Positions 44,704 through 59,448 of a DNA stretch of 64,000 bases are shown piece by piece. Both the position numbers and the translations under genes were made by a program. How positions within the stretch are numbered: position 1 is the first letter of the stretch; every line of letters begins with the position of its first letter. The notes beneath the pieces are model-generated. The model saw nothing but the letters and a program-made list of their open reading frames with translations, was not told the DNA's origin and searched no databases. This DNA comes from a phage, in assembly GCA_019338205.1 (NCBI GenBank), contig GCA_019338205.1_4761.1; one strand, written 5' to 3'.

Positions 44704-45696
44704 ATGACTAAAGCAAAAATCACCGTCTCTGACCGTAACGTTCAATGCCTGGATTCTGAAAAACAAATCAAACTGGCTAAACAGTGGGGCGAAGGTAAGT
44801 TTACTACCCGCGAAGCACTTGCGGCAGCATTTGGGGTATCTCGTCGTACTGCCTCCCGTGTATTACTGATTCAGAAAGACGCAGTAGCGGAAGGTCGCAA
44901 GGCACTAGAAAAACGTAAAGCACGCCGTAAAACCAGTAAAGGAAAAGGCGGTGAACGCGCAAAAAAGCCCGTGACTACTTCCTCAAAAATCGTAGCAATA
45001 GCCTCAACTAAGTTTATTACTATTACATGTGGTGACATTGTTTATACTGCTGATCCGTCGCATGTTAACTTTAATGAAGCACTGGAAGCGATTAAACATA
45101 ATGATTTCATCAAAGCTATTACGCTGATTGACATTAAGAAAGCGGTTGAAGTATATTATCACGGCGCTTTCCGTATCGAAAATGGTATTGTGTATTATCA
45201 TAATATTGTTCTTGATAATAATCTGACTCGTCGAGTTGTGGAGTCGATTAAAGAGAATAAGCCATATACGCACTATCTGAACTTCTTTGAGAAGTGCAAG
45301 AAAAACCCTAGCCGTAAGGCCGTAGATCGTCTATTTGACTTCTTAGAGCACAACGACATTGAGATCGTGGAAGATGGTTGTTTCTATGCATGGAAACGTG
45401 TTGATGTTGATTATAAAGATTTCTTTACGCATACGTTTGATAATAGCCCAGGTCGCACGGTTAAAATGAAGCGTAAAGACGTGGACCCAGATGATGATCG
45501 CACTTGCTCTAATGGCCTCCACGTTGCAGCGAAACACTATATTCCGCACTATGGCGGTGGACGAGGCCGAATCATTAAATGTAAAGTTGATCCGCGTCAC
45601 GTTGTAAGTATCCCGAAAGATTATGCGAATGCCAAAATGCGCTGTCATCGTTACTATGTGGTTGAAGATGTAACCGAAGGTTTTAGCCATTACTAA
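44704..45696 (+). CDS. rIIB: rIIB protein
   Basis: size and position downstream of rIIA; N-terminal HTH-like segment. Confidence 0.6.
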   Translation: MTKAKITVSDRNVQCLDSEKQIKLAKQWGEGKFTTREALAAAFGVSRRTASRVLLIQKDAVAEGRKALEKRKARRKTSKGKGGERAKKPVTTSSKIVAIASTKFITITCGDIVYTADPSHVNFNEALEAIKHNDFIKAITLIDIKKAVEVYYHGAFRIENGIVYYHNIVLDNNLTRRVVESIKENKPYTHYLNFFEKCKKNPSRKAVDRLFDFLEHNDIEIVEDGCFYAWKRVDVDYKDFFTHTFDNSPGRTVKMKRKDVDPDDDRTCSNGLHVAAKHYIPHYGGGRGRIIKCKVDPRHVVSIPKDYANAKMRCHRYYVVEDVTEGFSHY

Positions 45697-49802: not shown

Positions 49803-50561
49803 ATGAAAAACATTATCGCTGCTATCGTTCTTTCTGCTACTGCTTTCGGTGCTAACGCTGCGTCCTTTGATTGCGCTAAAGCTACTACCAAATCAGAGAA
49901 GTTTATTTGTGCTAATGAGTCTATCTCCGCACTGGACTCTAAACTTCATGAAGTGTATGTTAAGGCTGTTAAGATTGATCCGTCTCTGAAACAAGAGCAA
50001 CGAAACTGGAATAAAACTGTTCGTGATACAATGATCAATATCGGGCAGATTCAGCCACTGGAGGCTGTATACAACGCTCAAATCCAAAACTTGATGAATG
50101 TATTACCTAAAGAAGAAACCGCGTCAGAAAGCGATTCAGAGACTTCTGCGAAGGTTGAAGAAGAACAACCGAAACAGGAAGCAAAAGTGGTAGAAGAACC
50201 GAAGGTCGAAACTTTTACCTATCAATGCACTGTTCGCTATGAGTGGAGTATTAAAGATGGAATTTCTACCAAAATTAAAGAAGCGCCACTGTATGCCAAA
50301 TATGGAAATCAACCAGGAGATCTTAAAGTAACCATTAAAAATGGGAAGATGGTTGATTTTGTATACATTGATGAATACAACGTACACAAAGCAAACGTAC
50401 AAGAAACCGTTATGACTAAAGGCGGGTTTTATAAGAATGTTGGCAAGAAAGATCTATATGAATACTCCGTTTTCGAACCAAACGACGGAACTATTCGATT
50501 TGAAAAACGTCATCCTACATTCGGTGGAGCAATTGATGTAGATCAATACGTTTGCAAGTAA
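49803..50561 (+). CDS. secreted protein with LprI-like architecture (DUF1311-like N-domain + MliC-like C-domain)
   Basis: Signal peptide MKNIIAAIVLSATAFGANA; FDCAKATTKSEKFIC..LDSKLHEVY..QRNWNKTVRD; acidic linker; C-domain with two Cys. Confidence 0.55.
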   Translation: MKNIIAAIVLSATAFGANAASFDCAKATTKSEKFICANESISALDSKLHEVYVKAVKIDPSLKQEQRNWNKTVRDTMINIGQIQPLEAVYNAQIQNLMNVLPKEETASESDSETSAKVEEEQPKQEAKVVEEPKVETFTYQCTVRYEWSIKDGISTKIKEAPLYAKYGNQPGDLKVTIKNGKMVDFVYIDEYNVHKANVQETVMTKGGFYKNVGKKDLYEYSVFEPNDGTIRFEKRHPTFGGAIDVDQYVCK

Positions 50562-51807: not shown

Positions 51808-52140
51808 ATGTTTAACTATGACAAATATGAATCATGGAAAGCGACCGAATTGAAAGAGGCAGCGCGGTTAATCACACCGCGTCTTTATCCGGTGCTGTTT
51901 AGCGCCGATAAAGTAACAAGGGAAGTCAACGAGGCGCTATCGGTTTTAGGCTATCTGATCGATAAAGTAGAGAAAACATCGGTATTCACAAATAGCGTAG
52001 AATATACACGGTATCGAGTGTTTTTAGATTCCTTGCTCGTTGTCATTAAGGCACTAAATGATCATAACTACACCATGAACATGACGAAAATAATCGACGA
52101 AGCAAGAATTATGACAGAGAATATTTTCGGTAAATTTTGA
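51808..52140 (+). CDS. hypothetical protein, paralog of 52249..52578
   Basis: C-terminal ..ARIMTENIFGKF vs ..ARKLAENVYGKF. Confidence 0.5.
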   Translation: MFNYDKYESWKATELKEAARLITPRLYPVLFSADKVTREVNEALSVLGYLIDKVEKTSVFTNSVEYTRYRVFLDSLLVVIKALNDHNYTMNMTKIIDEARIMTENIFGKF

Positions 52141-52142
52141 TT

Positions 52143-52265
52143 ATGAAAGATGATGAATCATTGAAAATTGCACTGGTTATGTTATTACACTGTATAGAAT
52201 TAGCAAACCACGAAAAAATGTTGAAACAACAGCGTGAAATTATGAGAGGTGATTATGATCGAGTT
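52143..52265 (+). CDS. hypothetical small protein
   Basis: 40 aa ORF filling intergenic gap; weak. Confidence 0.2.
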
Positions 52266-52578
52266 TGAAATTGACAACTTTCACGAAAAAGCAGAAGACA
52301 TAACCAAAATTTTGATTAGTCGAGGTGCATATAATACTAAAGATATTATAAAAGAAGTTAATGTAGCGATGGACGCGATCCGAAATGAATTTAAACATAT
52401 TTCAGAGATTGGAGAAAATGGTCATCTTGAAGATGTTGAGCTGGTAGCACTGCGACGCTATTACTTCTTTGTTGATTGCATCATTGATCTAGCTAAAAAT
52501 TATAGTCATTACATGAAAGATATTGTAAAAGATGCACGTAAGCTGGCAGAGAATGTTTACGGGAAGTTTCCAGAATGA
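52249..52578 (+). CDS. hypothetical protein, paralog of 51808..52140
   Basis: 109 aa; GAGAGGTGATTATG. Confidence 0.5.
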   Translation: MIMIEFEIDNFHEKAEDITKILISRGAYNTKDIIKEVNVAMDAIRNEFKHISEIGENGHLEDVELVALRRYYFFVDCIIDLAKNYSHYMKDIVKDARKLAENVYGKFPE

Positions 52579-52823
52579 AATTAGAACAAGCGATTGTATA
52601 CTTTGAGATGGGCTATGATATTGCTCGTGTAGAGTGGGAAGATGGTGATTTTGTCCGATTGATTGATCTTCCAGAAACAGCTATTGCACTGGTCAAAGTA
52701 GAAAACGGCATACAACGCAATTACGCGTTTTCTGACGAAGACAAACAAGCCGATGACTGGTACGCTACATGTTTTCATCATACAGCGTCAAAATGCGATT
52801 CAGGCGCGTCTATGCGTCAATAA
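52575..52823 (+). CDS. hypothetical protein
   Basis: 82 aa ORF, last plus-strand gene before convergent terminator. Confidence 0.45.
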   Translation: MKLEQAIVYFEMGYDIARVEWEDGDFVRLIDLPETAIALVKVENGIQRNYAFSDEDKQADDWYATCFHHTASKCDSGASMRQ

Positions 52824-52858
52824 AAAAGAAGGGGAGGCCGAAAGGCTTCCCCTTTAAG
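52822..52858. terminator. bidirectional intrinsic terminator between convergent early (plus) and late (minus) units
   Basis: AAAAAAGAAGGGGAGGCCGAAAGGCTTCCCCTTTAAGTT: GC stem flanked by A-run and T-run. Confidence 0.75.
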
Positions 52859-53515
52859 TTATCTAATCCTTCCGAGGATTCTGGCAGATTGATTGCAAAG
52901 AGTATCTAAATTCTCAATGTCAATATCCGGTTTATTCTTCCATGCAATGGAGATACTACCAGAATAGACATTGTCGAGATTGAATATAGGACAAGAATAC
53001 ATAACCCCTATATCGATACTCTCTAATTTCTTTTCTCTTGATGGAATATACTGGAAATCTTTATCGGTAAAATAGGATTTACCTAAAAGATGCCTACGAT
53101 ATTCTTCACTCGTTTTATTGATAGGGAATCCGCCTAAATTCTTTTCGTCGATCGTATGAGGTAGCTTTCCTTCATATGCCACCAAATCAACAAAATAGTT
53201 TAGGTTTTTCGGACGAAAACTAAAAACAGCAGAAAAATCGGCATCAGCCGACACATGAACTATCTGTAACTGCTCCTGTGCTGCATTATCAAAATTGCGG
53301 TCTTTCTCTACCTGGAGAACGTGAGCATAAGTCTCATAACGAGTCTCTTTATAAAGCGCAAATAACTCGTTTTTACTATAAACGACAAATGCTAATATAG
53401 ACAACACGACGGCAGCAAAAACACGAAGTACGAGCAACTCCGTGCTTTTAGTTGTGAAAATAGCGCGCAGGACATTTGAGATAGCAAAGTCTTTCCCTTT
53501 TTCAGAAACTTGCAT
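52859..53515 (-). CDS. t: holin T
   Basis: 218 aa; QLQIVHVSADADFSAVFSFRPKNLNYFVDLVAYEGKLP, YSCPIFNLDNVYSG, ARILGR match T4 holin t as recalled. Confidence 0.85.
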   Translation of the reverse strand: MQVSEKGKDFAISNVLRAIFTTKSTELLVLRVFAAVVLSILAFVVYSKNELFALYKETRYETYAHVLQVEKDRNFDNAAQEQLQIVHVSADADFSAVFSFRPKNLNYFVDLVAYEGKLPHTIDEKNLGGFPINKTSEEYRRHLLGKSYFTDKDFQYIPSREKKLESIDIGVMYSCPIFNLDNVYSGSISIAWKNKPDIDIENLDTLCNQSARILGRIR

Positions 53516-53548
53516 ATAATGCCCTAAGATAACTATGACAGTGTACTC

Positions 53549-53788
53549 TTATTTAGGTACTTGACTATCACTAGGTTTATCTTGCTCGTTGCTATCTTCT
53601 GACTGATCTTTATTAAACTCCTTATAAAGTTCTTCCACAAAACGATCATCAATTGGCGTATTGGTATAAGCCGCAAGACGACGAGCGCAATAGAAGAAAA
53701 TTTTAGTGAGCATCTTTTCACTAATTAACTTTGACAATAGTTTCATTCCGAAATTAGACAAAGCACCAATGACGATATTATAGACCAT
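53549..53788 (-). CDS. hypothetical small protein upstream of holin
   Basis: 79 aa; AAGGAG RBS; amphipathic N-terminus, acidic C-terminus. Confidence 0.5.
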   Translation of the reverse strand: MVYNIVIGALSNFGMKLLSKLISEKMLTKIFFYCARRLAAYTNTPIDDRFVEELYKEFNKDQSEDSNEQDKPSDSQVPK

Positions 53789-53841
53789 AGCCGTTTCTCC
53801 TTAGTAGTTCCCTTCCCTGGGAGTTTTCCTTAATTCTTTTT

Positions 53842-54144
53842 TTAACGGTTGCTCAAGCGTCTATAACGAAGATGGGAAATACCCCTGTTTGTAGTTACCG
53901 TGATCGTTACTCCCTGCGGCACAATACAAGAATGGATCTGTCCCCAATCATGACCCTTATGACTTCCAGACACACAGAAGCCATGCAAAAGCAATTCTGA
54001 GTCACCACCGCCACCACCAGAAGAACTAGCACCAAATGAAACCGTACCGAAAGCGTCGGCTGTCCAACCGTTAGGAATATCAAACCATCCCTGATTCGCT
54101 TTACCGGCTTTATTGTCTAAAACTCCATACACCCAATATCCCAT
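53842..54144 (-). CDS. glycine-rich small protein, tandem paralog C
   Basis: MGYWV..GWFDIPNGW..GGGGG; AGGAG RBS; TAATG coupling to upstream paralog. Confidence 0.6.
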   Translation of the reverse strand: MGYWVYGVLDNKAGKANQGWFDIPNGWTADAFGTVSFGASSSGGGGGDSELLLHGFCVSGSHKGHDWGQIHSCIVPQGVTITVTTNRGISHLRYRRLSNR

Positions 54145-54449
54145 TAATGCATTCTCCTAAATTGGAAGTGGTTTAAACTTCCTTTACCAATACTAAAACT
54201 GACAGTAGCGCCAGCACCAACTAAAGAACTTGCTCCCCAACTTCCTGCATTACCAGCGTGATGACCTGATTCGAGAGTACCGTTTACATATAATTCTGCG
54301 TCCAGGTCACCACCGCCACCAACGGCTTCGGCATGAACAGACACAATACCGCATGAATCAGCCACCCAACCATTAGGGATACCAAACCACCCACCATTAG
54401 CATAAATGCTAATAGCATTAGCCATTCTTCCCGCAACCCATCCAGCCAT
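54144..54449 (-). CDS. glycine-rich small protein, tandem paralog B
   Basis: MAGWV..GWFGIPNGW..GGGG; GGAG RBS. Confidence 0.6.
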   Translation of the reverse strand: MAGWVAGRMANAISIYANGGWFGIPNGWVADSCGIVSVHAEAVGGGGDLDAELYVNGTLESGHHAGNAGSWGASSLVGAGATVSFSIGKGSLNHFQFRRMH

Positions 54450-54451
54450 AA

Positions 54452-54748
54452 TTAAAACTCCATAAATTTAAAGTATTCAATACCACCGCCACCACCATGA
54501 CCAAAGGTGACAGTACATCCAGCAGGAACAAACGCATTAACCGTAAATCCCCAATCCCCACCACCACGACGACGCGCGGCGACCACACCGTCAACGGAAA
54601 TATGAATATCACCCCAAACATCACGAGCGGTATGCCGCAAAACGGCAACACCAGCACGACCGGGGACATATCCATTAGGAATGTCAAATACATGCCATTT
54701 TACAGCATCGATTTTAGTTCCTTGTTCATTACTTACCCAATAGCCCAT
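54452..54748 (-). CDS. glycine-rich small protein, tandem paralog A
   Basis: MGYWV..FDIPNGY..GGG..GGGGG; AAGGA RBS after hairpin. Confidence 0.6.
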   Translation of the reverse strand: MGYWVSNEQGTKIDAVKWHVFDIPNGYVPGRAGVAVLRHTARDVWGDIHISVDGVVAARRRGGGDWGFTVNAFVPAGCTVTFGHGGGGGIEYFKFMEF

Positions 54749-54786
54749 TTAAAATCCTTAGCGGGGATTTCTCCCCGCTATTTAAA

Positions 54787-57700
54787 TTAACCAAATAATT
54801 TTGCTTCAATTGCAGCAAGACGATCATGAAGAATTTTATTTTCTTCTTTCAGACGGTTATTTTCTTCTTTAAGAAGTGCGATTTCTTCGGTGTGTTCGTT
54901 GATTGCCGCAGTATTTAAACCAATTACACCGTTATAGTTCAAACGAAGTAGAGCTTCGCCATCAGGGTCACCTTCAACTAATTCTGGTAAAATAGCTTGA
55001 ACTTCTTGAGCAATTAAACCGGCGTTAGGTTCCCATTTCTGATTGCCTTCTTCATCTAGGCCTCGCTTCTGCATATAAGTGTAACCATTAATTTTGGAAA
55101 GCCTCTCAGAAGCATTTTCAAATTTAACAAGGTCTTTTTTAACACGAATATCAGAACGAACATAAACATCGCGGACATATGTGGAATAGGAATCGCTTTG
55201 TTGGATTAAATGACCAAAAGAAATAATAGCTCTTCCGTGTTCAGTCCACAGAGCACCAGTGGTATCCCAAAGACCTTCATGGAGATGGTAAGCGGACGAC
55301 CATGAAGCAATATGCATTCCATTTGCAACCATATTGATTCGGCCGTCACCACCATGAACTAATCCAGTATCATTATCACCAATAACAACACATGCGCCTG
55401 TCCATACAGGGTCACCTCCACCAGCTGATACTCTTACTCCAGCTTTAACCATGTCAGGAACGTACATGTTTCCATTATGGTGGAATTCGAAGACAGCTTG
55501 CGGATCAGAACCATTTTCCTGGTTACCTACACGAATAATACCTTGTGCCCAGTTATTAGGAATGCGTCGCATACCAAAATCAACGCCAGAAAAATATCCT
55601 TCGTTAGTAATACCAGATTTTCCTTTAATAATAGGGTAATAGCAGTCATTACCGACATAACCAAAATCCACAAATATAGGAGCTTCTTGACGCCATTGAT
55701 TTCCCCAATCGCCGGCCTGGTGTGCGATCCATTGTGTACCGTTTATATGAAGGCGGTCTCTATTAAAATTAAATGTTCCTTGTCCTTGAGGAGAAAGCGA
55801 TATTTCGCCGTTATTTGTTATGTATACAGCGCCTTGTGTAATGTAACTGTAAAAGCCTAGACCATTGTCACCACCGCCTTTGCCTATATACCAGTTACCT
55901 GTACCGTCTATGTCACCACGAATATGCAAAGAATTACTAGCAGTTGTTGATAATACAATAGAATCACCCGGACGTTTAATAATCAATCTACCTTCGGATT
56001 CAACTTCACCAAAAAATTTAGTCTTAATTGCACCAGTCGCTAAAGTACGTTCAGTGGAAAAATGAACGCCTTTGCTATCTTCTAACTGGATGATGTTATC
56101 ACGAGCATTATTACTATCACCCCAATGGTTAAATTTAAAATAATCTCGTGATCCTAAACGTCCGGCGTCAAAAATCATCAAGCCTTTCATGTTAATATCA
56201 CCACCAAAAAATGCGGTGAGAGAATCACATTTTAATTTTAAAACGTTAGCACGACTAGTACCACCTAAAGAAACATCACCAGTGCTAAATTCATAACTGA
56301 AAGGTCTATTTGTATTAAAGTTTCCATCTTTATCATTTTCGTCGGTGGAAAGAATATAAAGACGCGAGCTATCAGCACGGAAAATTGTACCAAAATTTCC
56401 GCCATACATACGGAAAGCATTAGCTGGGCGGAATTTAACTTCTGCGTTAAAAGTTGTAGTTGATTTAAACGTGGTTGCAGCACCGAAGTTAACTGCACCA
56501 TTAAAATCTTGTTGAGCTGTCCATGTATGGCGACCATCTTCAAGAACAACACGACGAACTCTGCAACTTCTATTTCCCGGATTACCAGCAACACGAACGA
56601 CAAAATAACGGTAGTTATTTTGTGTCACAGTACCGCGCCAAACCTGAACAGTACGCCCTGTGCTAGTGTGTTCGCTAGGACCGACGGAAAACAGAATCAA
56701 GTTTTCATCAATCGTGCCCCAATCCATATTTTCTGGCATGTTCTTTATTTTGTTCAAAGGAACGCTAAACATACTACCGGGGACAAAATCAAAAGTTTGC
56801 CAATCTAACTCTGTTAATTTAGATTTAACACCACCCATACCCAAAGTAATTGGCATAGAATAGGACGTATATACTTCGTACCAATTGCCCCAGATGTTAT
56901 TTGTCATCGCACGTTCAAACACGCGAGATCGCGTAGTTTCACCCGTTCCTGCGGTAGTGAAACGTTGGAAAATAGCGCCGCCGGAAGCACGCTGTTTAAC
57001 CTCAAGCAATCCGGTCATCTCAACCGGAACACCTTCTGCAACTGGACGGTTAATAACGGCATCAGTGCCTAAAATATTATATAAGCCAGGAGAACGAAAA
57101 TTATTAAGATCCCCGTCATAAAATGTGCTGGGAGTAACCATGCCTACTTGTTGCCACGGTCCCCAATTCGGAGCTTCTGGATCCCATGCACCAGCAAGAC
57201 AACGAACATATACAACACCCATTCGGGTAGTATAACGTTGCGTGCGAGAATAGTTACCACCTTCATAAATTTCTAAAAGACCTTGCGCGAGACCACCTTC
57301 TTCTGGGTAATTTCGAGAAAATGATGCAATGGAACTTGAACTATTTCGCCATAACCCAAAATGAGAAGCATCACCTAAAGTATTCAAGTCTAGTGTAGTT
57401 GATAGTGGACGTGTGCCAGTTTGAATATTGCGCCACGGACCCCATGGACCATCTACGCCATTCCATTTCGCGGACAAAGAACGGATATAAACGTTACCAG
57501 ACCGAACCGTATAACGCTGAGTGCCAGCAAATTGACCAGCCACAAATACTTCTAATACACCTACAGCATTCTCTTCTGGGAATTTATTTGCTGGCTGCGC
57601 ATTTGTTGAAGTTGATTTAGACCAAACGCCAGTAAATTTACCAGTAGGTCCATAATTATCTAAATTTGCATCAGATGGCAACTCACCGCGAAAGTGTCCC

Positions 57701-57849
57701 AAAGTAATTACATTATTGCTGTCATCTTTTGTATATAGTTCTCGATCCGCTAGGTTAATAGCAAGTTCACCCGGAGTTAGAATATTCGCATCCGGCTTGC
57801 GACCTGCCGTACTTGTTCTTTTAAATTGGATTCTCTGTAAATCTGCCAT
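54787..57849 (-). CDS. 37: long tail fibre distal subunit gp37 with C-terminal intramolecular chaperone-like domain
   Basis: N-terminus MADLQRIQFKRTSTAG..GELAINL like T4 gp37; C-terminus SDIRVKKDL..GYTYMQK..GLIAQEV..coiled coil resembles peptidase S74-type chaperone domains. Confidence 0.8.
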   Translation of the reverse strand: MADLQRIQFKRTSTAGRKPDANILTPGELAINLADRELYTKDDSNNVITLGHFRGELPSDANLDNYGPTGKFTGVWSKSTSTNAQPANKFPEENAVGVLEVFVAGQFAGTQRYTVRSGNVYIRSLSAKWNGVDGPWGPWRNIQTGTRPLSTTLDLNTLGDASHFGLWRNSSSSIASFSRNYPEEGGLAQGLLEIYEGGNYSRTQRYTTRMGVVYVRCLAGAWDPEAPNWGPWQQVGMVTPSTFYDGDLNNFRSPGLYNILGTDAVINRPVAEGVPVEMTGLLEVKQRASGGAIFQRFTTAGTGETTRSRVFERAMTNNIWGNWYEVYTSYSMPITLGMGGVKSKLTELDWQTFDFVPGSMFSVPLNKIKNMPENMDWGTIDENLILFSVGPSEHTSTGRTVQVWRGTVTQNNYRYFVVRVAGNPGNRSCRVRRVVLEDGRHTWTAQQDFNGAVNFGAATTFKSTTTFNAEVKFRPANAFRMYGGNFGTIFRADSSRLYILSTDENDKDGNFNTNRPFSYEFSTGDVSLGGTSRANVLKLKCDSLTAFFGGDINMKGLMIFDAGRLGSRDYFKFNHWGDSNNARDNIIQLEDSKGVHFSTERTLATGAIKTKFFGEVESEGRLIIKRPGDSIVLSTTASNSLHIRGDIDGTGNWYIGKGGGDNGLGFYSYITQGAVYITNNGEISLSPQGQGTFNFNRDRLHINGTQWIAHQAGDWGNQWRQEAPIFVDFGYVGNDCYYPIIKGKSGITNEGYFSGVDFGMRRIPNNWAQGIIRVGNQENGSDPQAVFEFHHNGNMYVPDMVKAGVRVSAGGGDPVWTGACVVIGDNDTGLVHGGDGRINMVANGMHIASWSSAYHLHEGLWDTTGALWTEHGRAIISFGHLIQQSDSYSTYVRDVYVRSDIRVKKDLVKFENASERLSKINGYTYMQKRGLDEEGNQKWEPNAGLIAQEVQAILPELVEGDPDGEALLRLNYNGVIGLNTAAINEHTEEIALLKEENNRLKEENKILHDRLAAIEAKLFG

Positions 57850-57916
57850 TTTATAAAATCCTTAACGGTTGTTAGAATAATATTATTTAGAAAAGCGGGG
57901 ATTATCCCCGCTAGAA

Positions 57917-59407
57917 TTAGAAAGTACCAAAATCAATTACCGCATTAAGCGGAACCGCGCCAACTTCGGCAGGGGTAGGTTTGTGTCCTTCGTGGTATAA
58001 TTCAAATGTATCGGTGTCCTGAGTATTGTTGCGTGATTTAACGAAAATAATTTTAGAATCATGTGTGATGCCTAGTTTCTCGTGCGCTTTAATATCACTA
58101 ACACGATGAATCATTGCTGTGCCATCTAAGCTATTAAGTCCAGCGTAGCAATTATCACCATTATAGTTAGCTTTTGCGGTACGAACGCCGTTTGCAGCGG
58201 GAACTGTCAAAGCACCTCTCATGGTATCGCCAGTAACATTAACATAGCGAGCATCAGCCAATTTACGGTTATCTACATAGTTCCATGCAGTCCATGATTC
58301 ATTAGAACAAGAACGCCAGCACATCGGATGATCAATAGATTCAGGATAGTATACCTGAACAATTCGACGAGTACCGACCGCATCTTCTGGGCGATATACC
58401 ATCAAAACGCCGTTATAATAGCTATCAGACGGTTTATTAGTACCTGATCCAGCATTTTCCACACGATAGATACCGCGATTAATAAGAGTGTTCCAATCAA
58501 CGTTTCCAATGATTGTTGGATTTGCTACCATTGATTTTTTCTCAAAGTAGCTCAAACGAACCAATTCATTAGGACCAGCAGGATCGTTTGTCGCCAACAT
58601 TCTAGGCGCTTGCAAGTTACCTTCCATAATATCACCAGCACGTTTAACCTGTGCATCATTGGTGACATTGCCTAGCCCAACATCGGCTTTAGTTGGTTTA
58701 TTGTTGGTGTGATAAAAACGACCTTCTCTGCCATTAACAAAAATGGTAGGCTCATCTTTACTTCGGAAGACCAACGTATCAAGAACGTTACCATAATAGA
58801 TCTTAGTCGCATCAAAATTAATTAAATCACGTTCCCTTGCAATTAATTTCGAATCAACCGATAGTTTAACAGTGACAGTGTTTAAATTATATGTTCCTGT
58901 GAGAGTATCACCGCGACGAGACACCAAATCTAAATCATTATTCGTTGGTTTATTAACAGGGCTATAGACGCGTTGACCTGTGTCTTTAATGGTTGTCCCT
59001 TCGATAGTCCCTTTAGACTTAAATTCGCCCGTTGTGGTGTCAATATACGCCATAATAACGCCATCACGGGCATTAACAAAGCCGATTGACTTCCATGAAT
59101 GCAAACCCCAGCTTACGCCGTCAAAATTAGCAGCGTCGCTCTGACCTTTAAAGATACCATTCTTTTTGGTTTCTCCAGCCGATGCGCTACCTACGCTTAA
59201 ACCTTCCTCGAAATGAACTTGCTTTTGAAATGTGCCACCTTCGGATGCACTAACAGCATCAAAATCGGTAGCCGAAGGTCTATCAAAAGCGGTATAGATT
59301 TTATGACCTTTGTAGAAAAGCTGATCCCCCGCTGGCTGGATCGTCAAGTTTCCTTGCGTCCAAATGGGAGATCCACCTACAGTAGATCCATATTTCAAAT
59401 CTGCCAT
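57917..59407 (-). CDS. 36: long tail fibre subunit gp36 (extended, 496 aa)
   Basis: N-terminus MADLKYGSTVGGSPIWTQGN..PAGD like T4 gp36; synteny. Confidence 0.7.
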   Translation of the reverse strand: MADLKYGSTVGGSPIWTQGNLTIQPAGDQLFYKGHKIYTAFDRPSATDFDAVSASEGGTFQKQVHFEEGLSVGSASAGETKKNGIFKGQSDAANFDGVSWGLHSWKSIGFVNARDGVIMAYIDTTTGEFKSKGTIEGTTIKDTGQRVYSPVNKPTNNDLDLVSRRGDTLTGTYNLNTVTVKLSVDSKLIARERDLINFDATKIYYGNVLDTLVFRSKDEPTIFVNGREGRFYHTNNKPTKADVGLGNVTNDAQVKRAGDIMEGNLQAPRMLATNDPAGPNELVRLSYFEKKSMVANPTIIGNVDWNTLINRGIYRVENAGSGTNKPSDSYYNGVLMVYRPEDAVGTRRIVQVYYPESIDHPMCWRSCSNESWTAWNYVDNRKLADARYVNVTGDTMRGALTVPAANGVRTAKANYNGDNCYAGLNSLDGTAMIHRVSDIKAHEKLGITHDSKIIFVKSRNNTQDTDTFELYHEGHKPTPAEVGAVPLNAVIDFGTF

Positions 59408-59440: not shown

Positions 59441-59448
59441 TATTTATA
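59441..59448 (-). promoter_or_regulatory. T4-type late promoter TATAAATA upstream of gene 36
   Basis: reverse complement of plus TATTTATA; 33 nt upstream of gp36 ATG; gp55 is present in window. Confidence 0.55.

Follow-up and report, generated by a model that had tools for sequence, protein, structure and literature searches.

Three small tandem genes, here called A, B, and C, occupy the gp38 position behind the long tail fibre gene of a Krischvirus (an RB49-like, T4-type coliphage), and we propose that their products form a three-subunit tail-fibre tip module that replaces the gp38 adhesin. We put the probability of this reading at roughly 0.45; within it, the location in the virion, the hetero-oligomeric state, the docking to the fibre, and the binding of a receptor are what we infer. 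The window, that is, the whole stretch of phage DNA analysed, is 64,000 nucleotides long, and its region around the triplet is 95% identical to the phage vB_EcoM_G2248 (G2248).

Gene A (54748..54452, minus strand) codes for 98 aa and is the first of the triplet. It is followed after a gap of 2 nt by gene B (54449..54144, minus strand; 101 aa), the stop codon of which overlaps the start codon of the third gene, C (54144..53842, minus strand; 100 aa), in the sequence TAATG. Each gene is preceded by its own Shine-Dalgarno sequence situated 7–9 nt upstream of the start codon (AAGGA, GGAG, and AGGAG for A, B, and C, respectively). The proteins begin with MGYW (A), MAGW (B), and MGYW (C), have the core motif (V/W)F(D/G)IPNG(Y/W) in common, and carry glycine runs, which are GGG and GGGGG in A, GGGG in B, and GGGGG in C. 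The orthologues of the A type have FKFMEF at the end, while those of the B type end with RFKRMx and often have an N-terminal extension. Neither a signal peptide nor a membrane segment was found in the sequences of A, B, or C.

The BLASTP comparison showed that the three proteins align with each other from end to end at a pairwise identity of 28–42% (E 7e-20 to 1e-6). Judged by these alignments, their paralogy is above chance. For the triplet genes compared with their orthologues from three phages and three prophages, the Ka/Ks values ranged from 0.05 to 0.41 (0.07–0.41 for gene A and 0.05–0.21 for gene B). Because of the end-to-end paralogy and these Ka/Ks values, we conclude that A, B, and C are real, constrained genes and not fragments. 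A sequence-only reading of this DNA had described three tandem, coupled paralogs of ~100 aa, each with its own Shine-Dalgarno sequence, as well as the M(G/A)(Y/G)W starts, the shared core, and the glycine runs, and all of this was reproduced by our coordinates, spacings, and alignments.

The gene upstream of the triplet is gp37 (54787..57849, minus strand), which codes for the distal subunit of the long tail fibre. Its product of 1020 aa is a mosaic and matches phrog_1699 (E 2.7e-187), Gp34_trimer, and Peptidase_S74. The holin gene t lies downstream of the triplet (53515..52859, minus strand). The sequence-only reading had positioned the triplet correctly between gp37 and t, but it did not mention a conserved ORF of 79 aa (53788..53549, minus strand; phrog_402) that is found between C and t. 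Its identification of this place as the gp38 slot of T-even phages agrees with the gp37–gp38 layout of other Krischvirus and T-even phages that have the gp38 adhesin.

A GC-rich hairpin (54759..54780, minus strand; core GCGGGGA-GAAA-TCCCCGC) is located between the stop codon of gp37 and the Shine-Dalgarno sequence of gene A. This hairpin carries a terminator annotation in G2248 and could act as a terminator. Its counterparts with other stem sequences are present at two further triplet loci (L013 and L020) and in the gp37–gp38 spacer of phage PP01. The only exact copy in the window of the T4-type late promoter motif, TATAAATA, was found by motif match upstream of gp36 (59441..59448, minus strand), and it is likely the start of a gp36-gp37-A-B-C transcript. 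No separate late promoter was found ahead of gene A, where only TTTAAATA is present.

The Peptidase_S74 domain (PF13884) was detected in residues 899–958 of gp37, starting from profile position 1 (E 2.4e-12) and preceded by VYVRS. It belongs to the C-terminal intramolecular chaperone of gp37 (54790..55155, minus strand; residues 899–1020). On the basis of what is known about the S74 family, gp37 is predicted to cleave itself after Ser898, between VYVRS and DIRVKK. An S74 domain is present in every fibre encoded upstream of a triplet. Thus, the earlier statement that gp37 has its own chaperone was right; meanwhile, the argument attached to it, that a gp38 is then not needed, does not hold, since the gp37 of the T2/PP01 type has the same chaperone and yet is followed by a gp38 adhesin.

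The nucleotide comparison revealed the mosaic structure of the locus. The stretch 58000..55472 is 87% identical to the Krischvirus G2494. The following segment, 55933..54861, is 97% identical to gp37 of the Tequatrovirus PP01 and 91% identical to that of RB69; this segment (54861..55933, minus strand) encodes a T2-like distal tip, of the PP01/RB69 type, together with most of the chaperone, and is the proposed docking platform. At the protein level, residues 795–898 of gp37 are 99% identical to PP01. In PP01 and RB69, a hairpin and a Shine-Dalgarno sequence separate the corresponding end of gp37 from gene 38, whose product is labelled the distal fibre tip in the PP01 annotation. In the window, the similarity to PP01 ends within the chaperone, and there begins a horizontally exchanged cassette (53828..54846, minus strand) that comprises the final ~20 codons of gp37 along with the hairpin and the genes A, B, and C. 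The nucleotide identity of 54846..53828 to the E. coli siphovirus prophages L007, L009, and L010 is 92%, and in the prophages L008 and L011 the similarity reaches further, to positions 55388 and 55410. The GC content is 0.43–0.49 in the cassette versus 0.36–0.40 in its flanks. The stretch 53850..52801 is again similar to G2494 (98% nucleotide identity). As the PP01-like tip is continued by the prophage-like cassette, the triplet occupies the exact gp38 position of the phages having the same fibre end. The 92% identity shows that this ~1 kb cassette has recently been exchanged between E. coli prophages and a virulent phage of the T4-like kind.

The gp38 gene of Krischvirus phages is located either next to gp37 or ~55 kb away from it. 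We mapped the distal site between ORF078 and ORF080 of phage Phi1. In G2494, gp38 is adjacent to gp37, the distal site is empty, and there is no triplet; in Phi1, gp38 is found at the distal site, and a triplet is again missing. Phage KFS-EC has an intact distal gp38, which is 98% identical to that of Phi1, and its triplet is broken by a frameshift and an A/C fusion that arose from a deletion between the stretches coding for the glycine runs. In G2248, G37-3, and UPWr_E1, the triplet is intact, and both of the known sites lack gp38. For G37-3 and UPWr_E1, the absence of gp38 was read at these two sites only. For G2248, no gp38 was detected by tblastn in 160 kb of its genome or in the stretches of the window that match the remaining ~10 kb. 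In the window itself, whose 64 kb end just short of the distal site of this phage (it falls just outside position 1, at the equivalent of G2248 45250-45311), tblastn with gp38 of G2494 revealed no gp38 homologue. Hence, an intact triplet and gp38 were never found together in seven Krischvirus genomes, which are related and not independent of each other. Likewise, no gp38 was observed at any of the triplet loci examined.

In several respects, the triplet resembles the gp38 adhesin of T2, T6, S16, and PP01. Both are encoded separately and directly after a gp37 with a self-cleaving chaperone, behind a hairpin and a Shine-Dalgarno sequence; both are paired with the same gp37 tip types, and both have glycine-rich stretches. 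However, the gp38 adhesin is one protein of ~260 aa, whereas the triplet codes for three proteins of ~100 aa. The adhesin is built of a beta-helix and a polyglycine-II sandwich and contains ten glycine-rich motifs and hypervariable segments; the triplet proteins are predicted jelly-rolls with one or two glycine runs each and without hypervariable segments. Unlike the gp38 adhesin, the triplet is also found in siphoviruses and podoviruses. The gp38 of T4, a fibre assembly chaperone that is absent from the virion, has only the slot between gp37 and t in common with the triplet: there is no sequence relation between them, and the gp37 of T4 lacks the S74 chaperone, whereas that of the window has its own. 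The Pfam and PHROG searches showed no homology of A, B, or C to the gp38 adhesins of the T2/S16 type, and no family match to the T4 gp38 was obtained. The earlier view that the three proteins are unlike either kind of gp38 is therefore correct.

No family match for A, B, or C was found in Pfam, PHROGs, NCBIfam, PADLOC, or the PDB sequences. The weak matches to the PDB sequences of the "Pizza" designer propellers, as well as the profile matches to giant NHL, ankyrin, and DUF4347 proteins, were discarded as repeat-motif noise. The family is rare. An exhaustive profile search of 1.84 billion protein representatives yielded 18 hits, 3 of them spurious repeat proteins, and a word-indexed search of 5.8 billion proteins yielded 38 clusters originating from E. 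coli, Shigella, Salmonella, or unnamed assemblies. Only 4 of the 50,697 phage records carry the family, all of them Krischvirus (G2248, UPWr_E1, G37-3, and KFS-EC). It is present in 24 of 5426 complete E. coli genomes, on the chromosome every time. IMG/VR provided nine loci, all of the near-identical prophage type. The species-representative genomes contained no additional triplet loci, and tblastn with the distant orthologues revealed no further cultured phages. The triplet genes are labelled hypothetical in every record, and literature searches on Krischvirus and gp38, UPWr_E1, KFS-EC, and C1q/TNF-like fibres revealed no description of them; the family is undescribed.

The gene context was examined at the locus of the window, in the four other Krischvirus isolates, in siphovirus prophages of E. 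coli and Salmonella, at a T7-like locus, and in three further metagenomic lineages. At every locus, the triplet has three members in the order A-B-C, with near-constant spacing, and directly follows an ORF with Peptidase_S74; in KFS-EC, this arrangement is decayed. In the E. coli and Salmonella siphovirus prophages, the triplet (98/101/100 or 99/132/99 aa) is situated between an S74 fibre of 1027–1235 aa and the major tail protein. At the metagenomic T7-like locus, a fibre having both Phage_T7_tail and Peptidase_S74 is followed by the triplet and then by a T7-like holin. The triplets of the three further metagenomic lineages also follow S74 fibres, and in one of these lineages the triplet is succeeded by a second fibre gene, as at locus L022. 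Sets of one, two, or four intact copies were not encountered at any of the loci examined. A fibre-tip or receptor-binding accessory role, as the sequence-only reading had suggested, is likely in view of the synteny with S74 fibres in three morphotypes and the mutual exclusion with gp38 in the seven Krischvirus genomes.

Near-identical triplets (83–95% aa identity) are paired with at least two kinds of fibre tip, the PP01 type and the "KATHWG" type. The idea that the triplet is tied to one fibre-tip type was therefore rejected. For the same reason, the docking site of the triplet on the fibre, if there is one, must be generic.

In the neighbour-joining tree, the proteins encoded at the first position form one clade across the loci, and those at the second position form another. 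The proteins of the third position fall mostly into one group, and they never cluster with the neighbours from their own locus. As the clades follow the position and not the locus, we conclude that the triplication is ancient and that each gene has been retained since. The three lineages thus have a long history and do not substitute for one another; this and the coupling of the genes fit an obligate hetero-complex. The recent diversifying triplication assumed by the earlier reading is contradicted by these ancient lineages, orthologous across distant phages, and by the purifying selection acting on them.

The structure of C was modelled with AlphaFold2 using an alignment of 29 sequences (pLDDT 83.9, pTM 0.71). 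The model consists of a short N-terminal helix (residues 2–12, pLDDT ~62) and a jelly-roll beta-sandwich, in which the glycine run sits in a loop between two strands. The single-sequence AlphaFold model of the gene A product had a pLDDT of 57 and was too poor for use. When the model of C was compared with the PDB using Foldseek, the top matches were the cerebellins, C1QL, lymphotoxin, and the collagen X NC1 domain; these were weak, with E-values of at least 1.6e-3 and TM-scores of 0.4–0.55. The fold matches also include carbohydrate-binding modules. In a viral structure library, weak matches to the C-terminal parts of tail fibres and to proteins with C1q or collagen repeats were obtained. The predicted likeness of C to the C1q/TNF heads is one of fold, with scores below the level of homology. 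The C1q/TNF heads (C1q A/B/C, cerebellins, and lymphotoxin) form trimers, which are heterotrimers in C1q and lymphotoxin. They are only 5–19% identical to the triplet proteins, which show no signature of this family in Pfam or in the PDB sequences; besides, these heads are ten-strand jelly-rolls of ~130 residues, whereas the sandwich of the triplet is of ~85 residues. The polyglycine (PGII) fold proposed earlier is not supported by this model, which is a jelly-roll with matches among C1q/TNF heads and carbohydrate-binding modules and has its glycine run in a loop.

A fibre of the cyanophage Pam3, gp24, contains a TNF-like domain and a glycine-rich domain in its receptor-binding end (PMC9608196). 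The triplet would be comparable to it in having a TNF-like sandwich with glycine-rich elements, the place of the triplet at the fibre end being our proposal. However, in Pam3 the TNF-like domain belongs to the fibre chain itself, is homotrimeric, and depends on a separate chaperone, gp25; no sequence relation to the triplet was seen.

In phage S16, one gp38 caps the gp37 trimer by means of three conserved Trp residues; each of them sits at the apex of a short helix and is inserted into one of three symmetry-equivalent gp37 pockets (PMC6851490). The first helix of gp38 reads G-W-(I/V)-G. The proteins A, B, and C all begin with M-(G/A)-x-W-V, in which Trp4 is invariant in 29 enterobacterial sequences; this segment is within the N-terminal helix predicted with low confidence. 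The distant orthologues have Leu, Met, or Tyr in place of Trp4. The proteins A, B, and C differ from each other most in the loops. Hypervariable segments like those of gp38 were not found in the triplet, and Ka/Ks was below 1 throughout.

From these observations, the following mechanism may be proposed. The gp37 protein would be folded by means of its own C-terminal S74 chaperone and would then cut itself after Ser898. Equal amounts of A, B, and C would be made from the coupled genes, and the three proteins would assemble into a complex of C1q/TNF-like jelly-rolls, a pseudo-threefold cap placed on the exposed threefold-symmetric end of gp37. By analogy with the three-helix Trp plug of the single gp38, each subunit might dock by its short N-terminal Trp helix, and the variable loops of the jelly-rolls, including the loop with the glycine run, would contact the receptor on the cell surface. 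The hairpin ahead of gene A may lower the expression of A, B, and C relative to gp37; such damping, if it occurs, along with the equal synthesis from coupled genes, would fit one A-B-C complex per three chains of gp37. We favour a hetero-trimer because all three genes are conserved and coupled. Docking to the generic end of an S74 fibre, as proposed here, would account for the mobility of the module together with the 3' end of fibre genes among myoviruses, siphoviruses, and podoviruses.

A more specific version of this proposal describes the triplet as a portable adhesin made of one copy each of three different C1q/TNF-like proteins, the N-terminal aromatic helices of which are inserted into the three pockets left after S74 self-cleavage. 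We regard this version as tentative and, on balance, doubtful. If true, it would mean that a three-protein adhesin solves the symmetry problem of the monomeric gp38 by another route and serves as a ready-made host-range cassette across fibre types.

The other explanations have to be weighed against the same evidence. It seems unlikely that the role of A, B, and C is to assist S74 fibres in assembly or maturation, with all three absent from the finished virion and receptor binding left to gp37. As such helpers, they might aid the release of the chaperone, shield the hydrophobic end of the fibre, or help the fibre to attach. S74 fibres normally do not need an extra chaperone, and the vast majority of them have no triplet, as the 18 hits among 1.84 billion proteins show. 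In T4, a pure chaperone, gp38, occupies the very same slot. The association of the triplet with the S74 chaperone and not with one tip type would suit an assembly factor, as would a sequence variation that is low for an adhesin. On the other hand, the PP01-type end of gp37 serves to carry an adhesin, and the search of the closest relative, G2248, revealed no other one. The predicted fold of C also resembles binding heads and not Tfa or the gp38 chaperones.

According to another explanation, which we consider somewhat less probable still, the proteins do act at the fibre tip, but A, B, and C form separate homo-oligomers used as alternative or mixed caps, thus providing several receptor specificities. 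Whatever the context contributes in favour of a tip role counts just as much for this arrangement. The C1q/TNF-like jelly-rolls are commonly homotrimeric, and the paralogs are most divergent in the loops. However, independent caps would be expected to undergo gain, loss, and reshuffling, and the examined loci included none with one, two, or four intact copies; instead, all three lineages have been kept in the same order across a long divergence, with tight coupling at every locus.

It is also improbable, more so than either of the preceding explanations, that the triplet is cargo riding on a recombination hotspot in the conserved S74 sequence and has a role unrelated to the fibre, such as counter-defence, phage exclusion, or lysis timing. 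The exclusion between the triplet and gp38 would then be a coincidence. The siphovirus prophages carry the triplet amid a structural operon, far from any lysis gene in the sequence examined, and at L022 it is followed by a second fibre gene. No match to defence-related families was obtained with PADLOC. The sole hints in favour of cargo are the nearby holins and the fold matches to XepA and YomS. These proteins of the Bacillus prophages PBSX and SPbeta are pentamers in crystal structures; they differ from the triplet in having no link to S74 fibres, and their fold score is no better than those of many other sandwiches.

Finally, decay of a single gene or chance ORFs can practically be dismissed: only the KFS-EC locus has decayed, to the A/C fusion with a frameshift, nothing points to decay in the window, and the separate start codon and Shine-Dalgarno sequence of each ORF, the end-to-end alignment, the tree, and the conservation as separate genes with Ka/Ks of 0.05–0.41 exclude the degraded-gene origin against which the sequence-only reading had asked its own proposal to be checked.

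The three-subunit tip module therefore remains our preferred reading of the triplet. The papers searched on the host range of T-even phages give only two solutions for the fibre tip: the T4-type solution, in which the head of gp37 binds the receptor and gp38 is a chaperone, and the T2/T6/S16-type solution, in which a gp38 adhesin caps the fibre. Models for receptor prediction that are keyed on gp38 or gp37 would miss the triplet. For structural biology, a homotrimeric fibre capped by a heterotrimer would be of interest, and a cassette found on the fibres of three tail types is a candidate plug-in module for phage retargeting. For the T-even phages themselves, the triplet would represent a third option for the fibre tip, which is most likely common to siphoviruses and podoviruses as well.

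The nucleotide comparison showed that gp37, the gene of the distal subunit of the long tail fibre, and its surroundings (window positions 52801-58000) are a mosaic of three sources. The Krischvirus backbone covers positions 58000..55472 and 53850..52801, a fibre tip resembling that of the Tequatrovirus PP01 covers 55933..54861 (97% nucleotide identity), and a cassette of an E. coli siphovirus prophage covers 54846..53828 (92% nucleotide identity). The junction between the PP01-like and prophage-like stretches of gp37 lies within the coiled-coil end of its Peptidase_S74 (S74) chaperone. In one metagenomic lineage, a second tail-fibre gene of 902 aa (L022:1375-4083; phrog_6921, with a weak match to Collar) follows the triplet of small paralogous genes A, B, and C; thus, the triplet there makes up one block with the S74 fibre gene before it and the second fibre gene after it.

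In the phage KFS-EC (MH560358.1), a single ORF of 107 aa (L004:6149-6472) is a fusion of A and C. A deletion linked the stretch coding for a glycine run near the end of A with its counterpart midway through C, leaving the remainder of C out of frame. The same genome also carries an intact gp38 adhesin gene approximately 55 kb away from the fusion (L037:5142-5918). This second gp38 site, flanked by two small conserved ORFs, is shared by KFS-EC and Phi1 (EF437941.1, 44989-45765). In G2248 (equivalent positions 45250-45311 of MK327932.1), G37-3, UPWr_E1, and G2494, it is an empty, hairpin-bearing spacer of ~61 nt, the sequence of which is identical in G2248 and G37-3. In the phage studied here, the site is located just past window position 1 and hence outside the window. 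The screening of the G2248 genome for gp38 brought to light two large Hoc-like proteins of 409 and 846 aa (MK327932.1, 104364-108185; L018:4364-8185), each with repeated Ig-like modules and both with the conserved C-terminal segment YVHP(L/I)PWRRTSF.

A 79-aa ORF of phrog_402 (function unknown; 53549-53788, minus strand) separates the adhesin slot from holin t in all the Krischvirus phages examined, regardless of the tip module. On the plus strand, the adjacent ORFs of 110 and 109 aa (51808-52140 and 52249-52578), annotated as hypothetical in relatives, look like paralogs judging from their sequences, with the common C-terminal motif ...(E/D)ARxxxENxxGKF. The 252-aa ORF at 49803-50561 (plus strand), conserved in G2248, G2494, and KFS-EC as a hypothetical protein, has an N-terminus resembling a signal peptide (MKNIIAAIVLSATAFGANA), and its middle part is acidic and rich in lysine. 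Whereas chance alone would give ~5 exact copies of the T4 late-promoter motif (TATAAATA) in a window of 64 kb, there is a single one (59441-59448, minus strand), which lies just upstream of gp36.

In most of the triplet loci, a GC-rich hairpin directly follows the stop codon of the fibre gene, ahead of the Shine-Dalgarno sequence that serves the gene downstream. Such hairpins are found at 54759-54780 in the window, at L007:7964-8000 in an E. coli siphovirus prophage, and at L012:7261-7300, L013:1954-1989, L020:1825-1863, and L033:4149-4179. The stem sequences differ among the triplet loci, and the gp37-gp38 spacer of PP01 has a hairpin of this kind as well. The post-fibre hairpin might set the expression ratio of the fibre versus its tip proteins.
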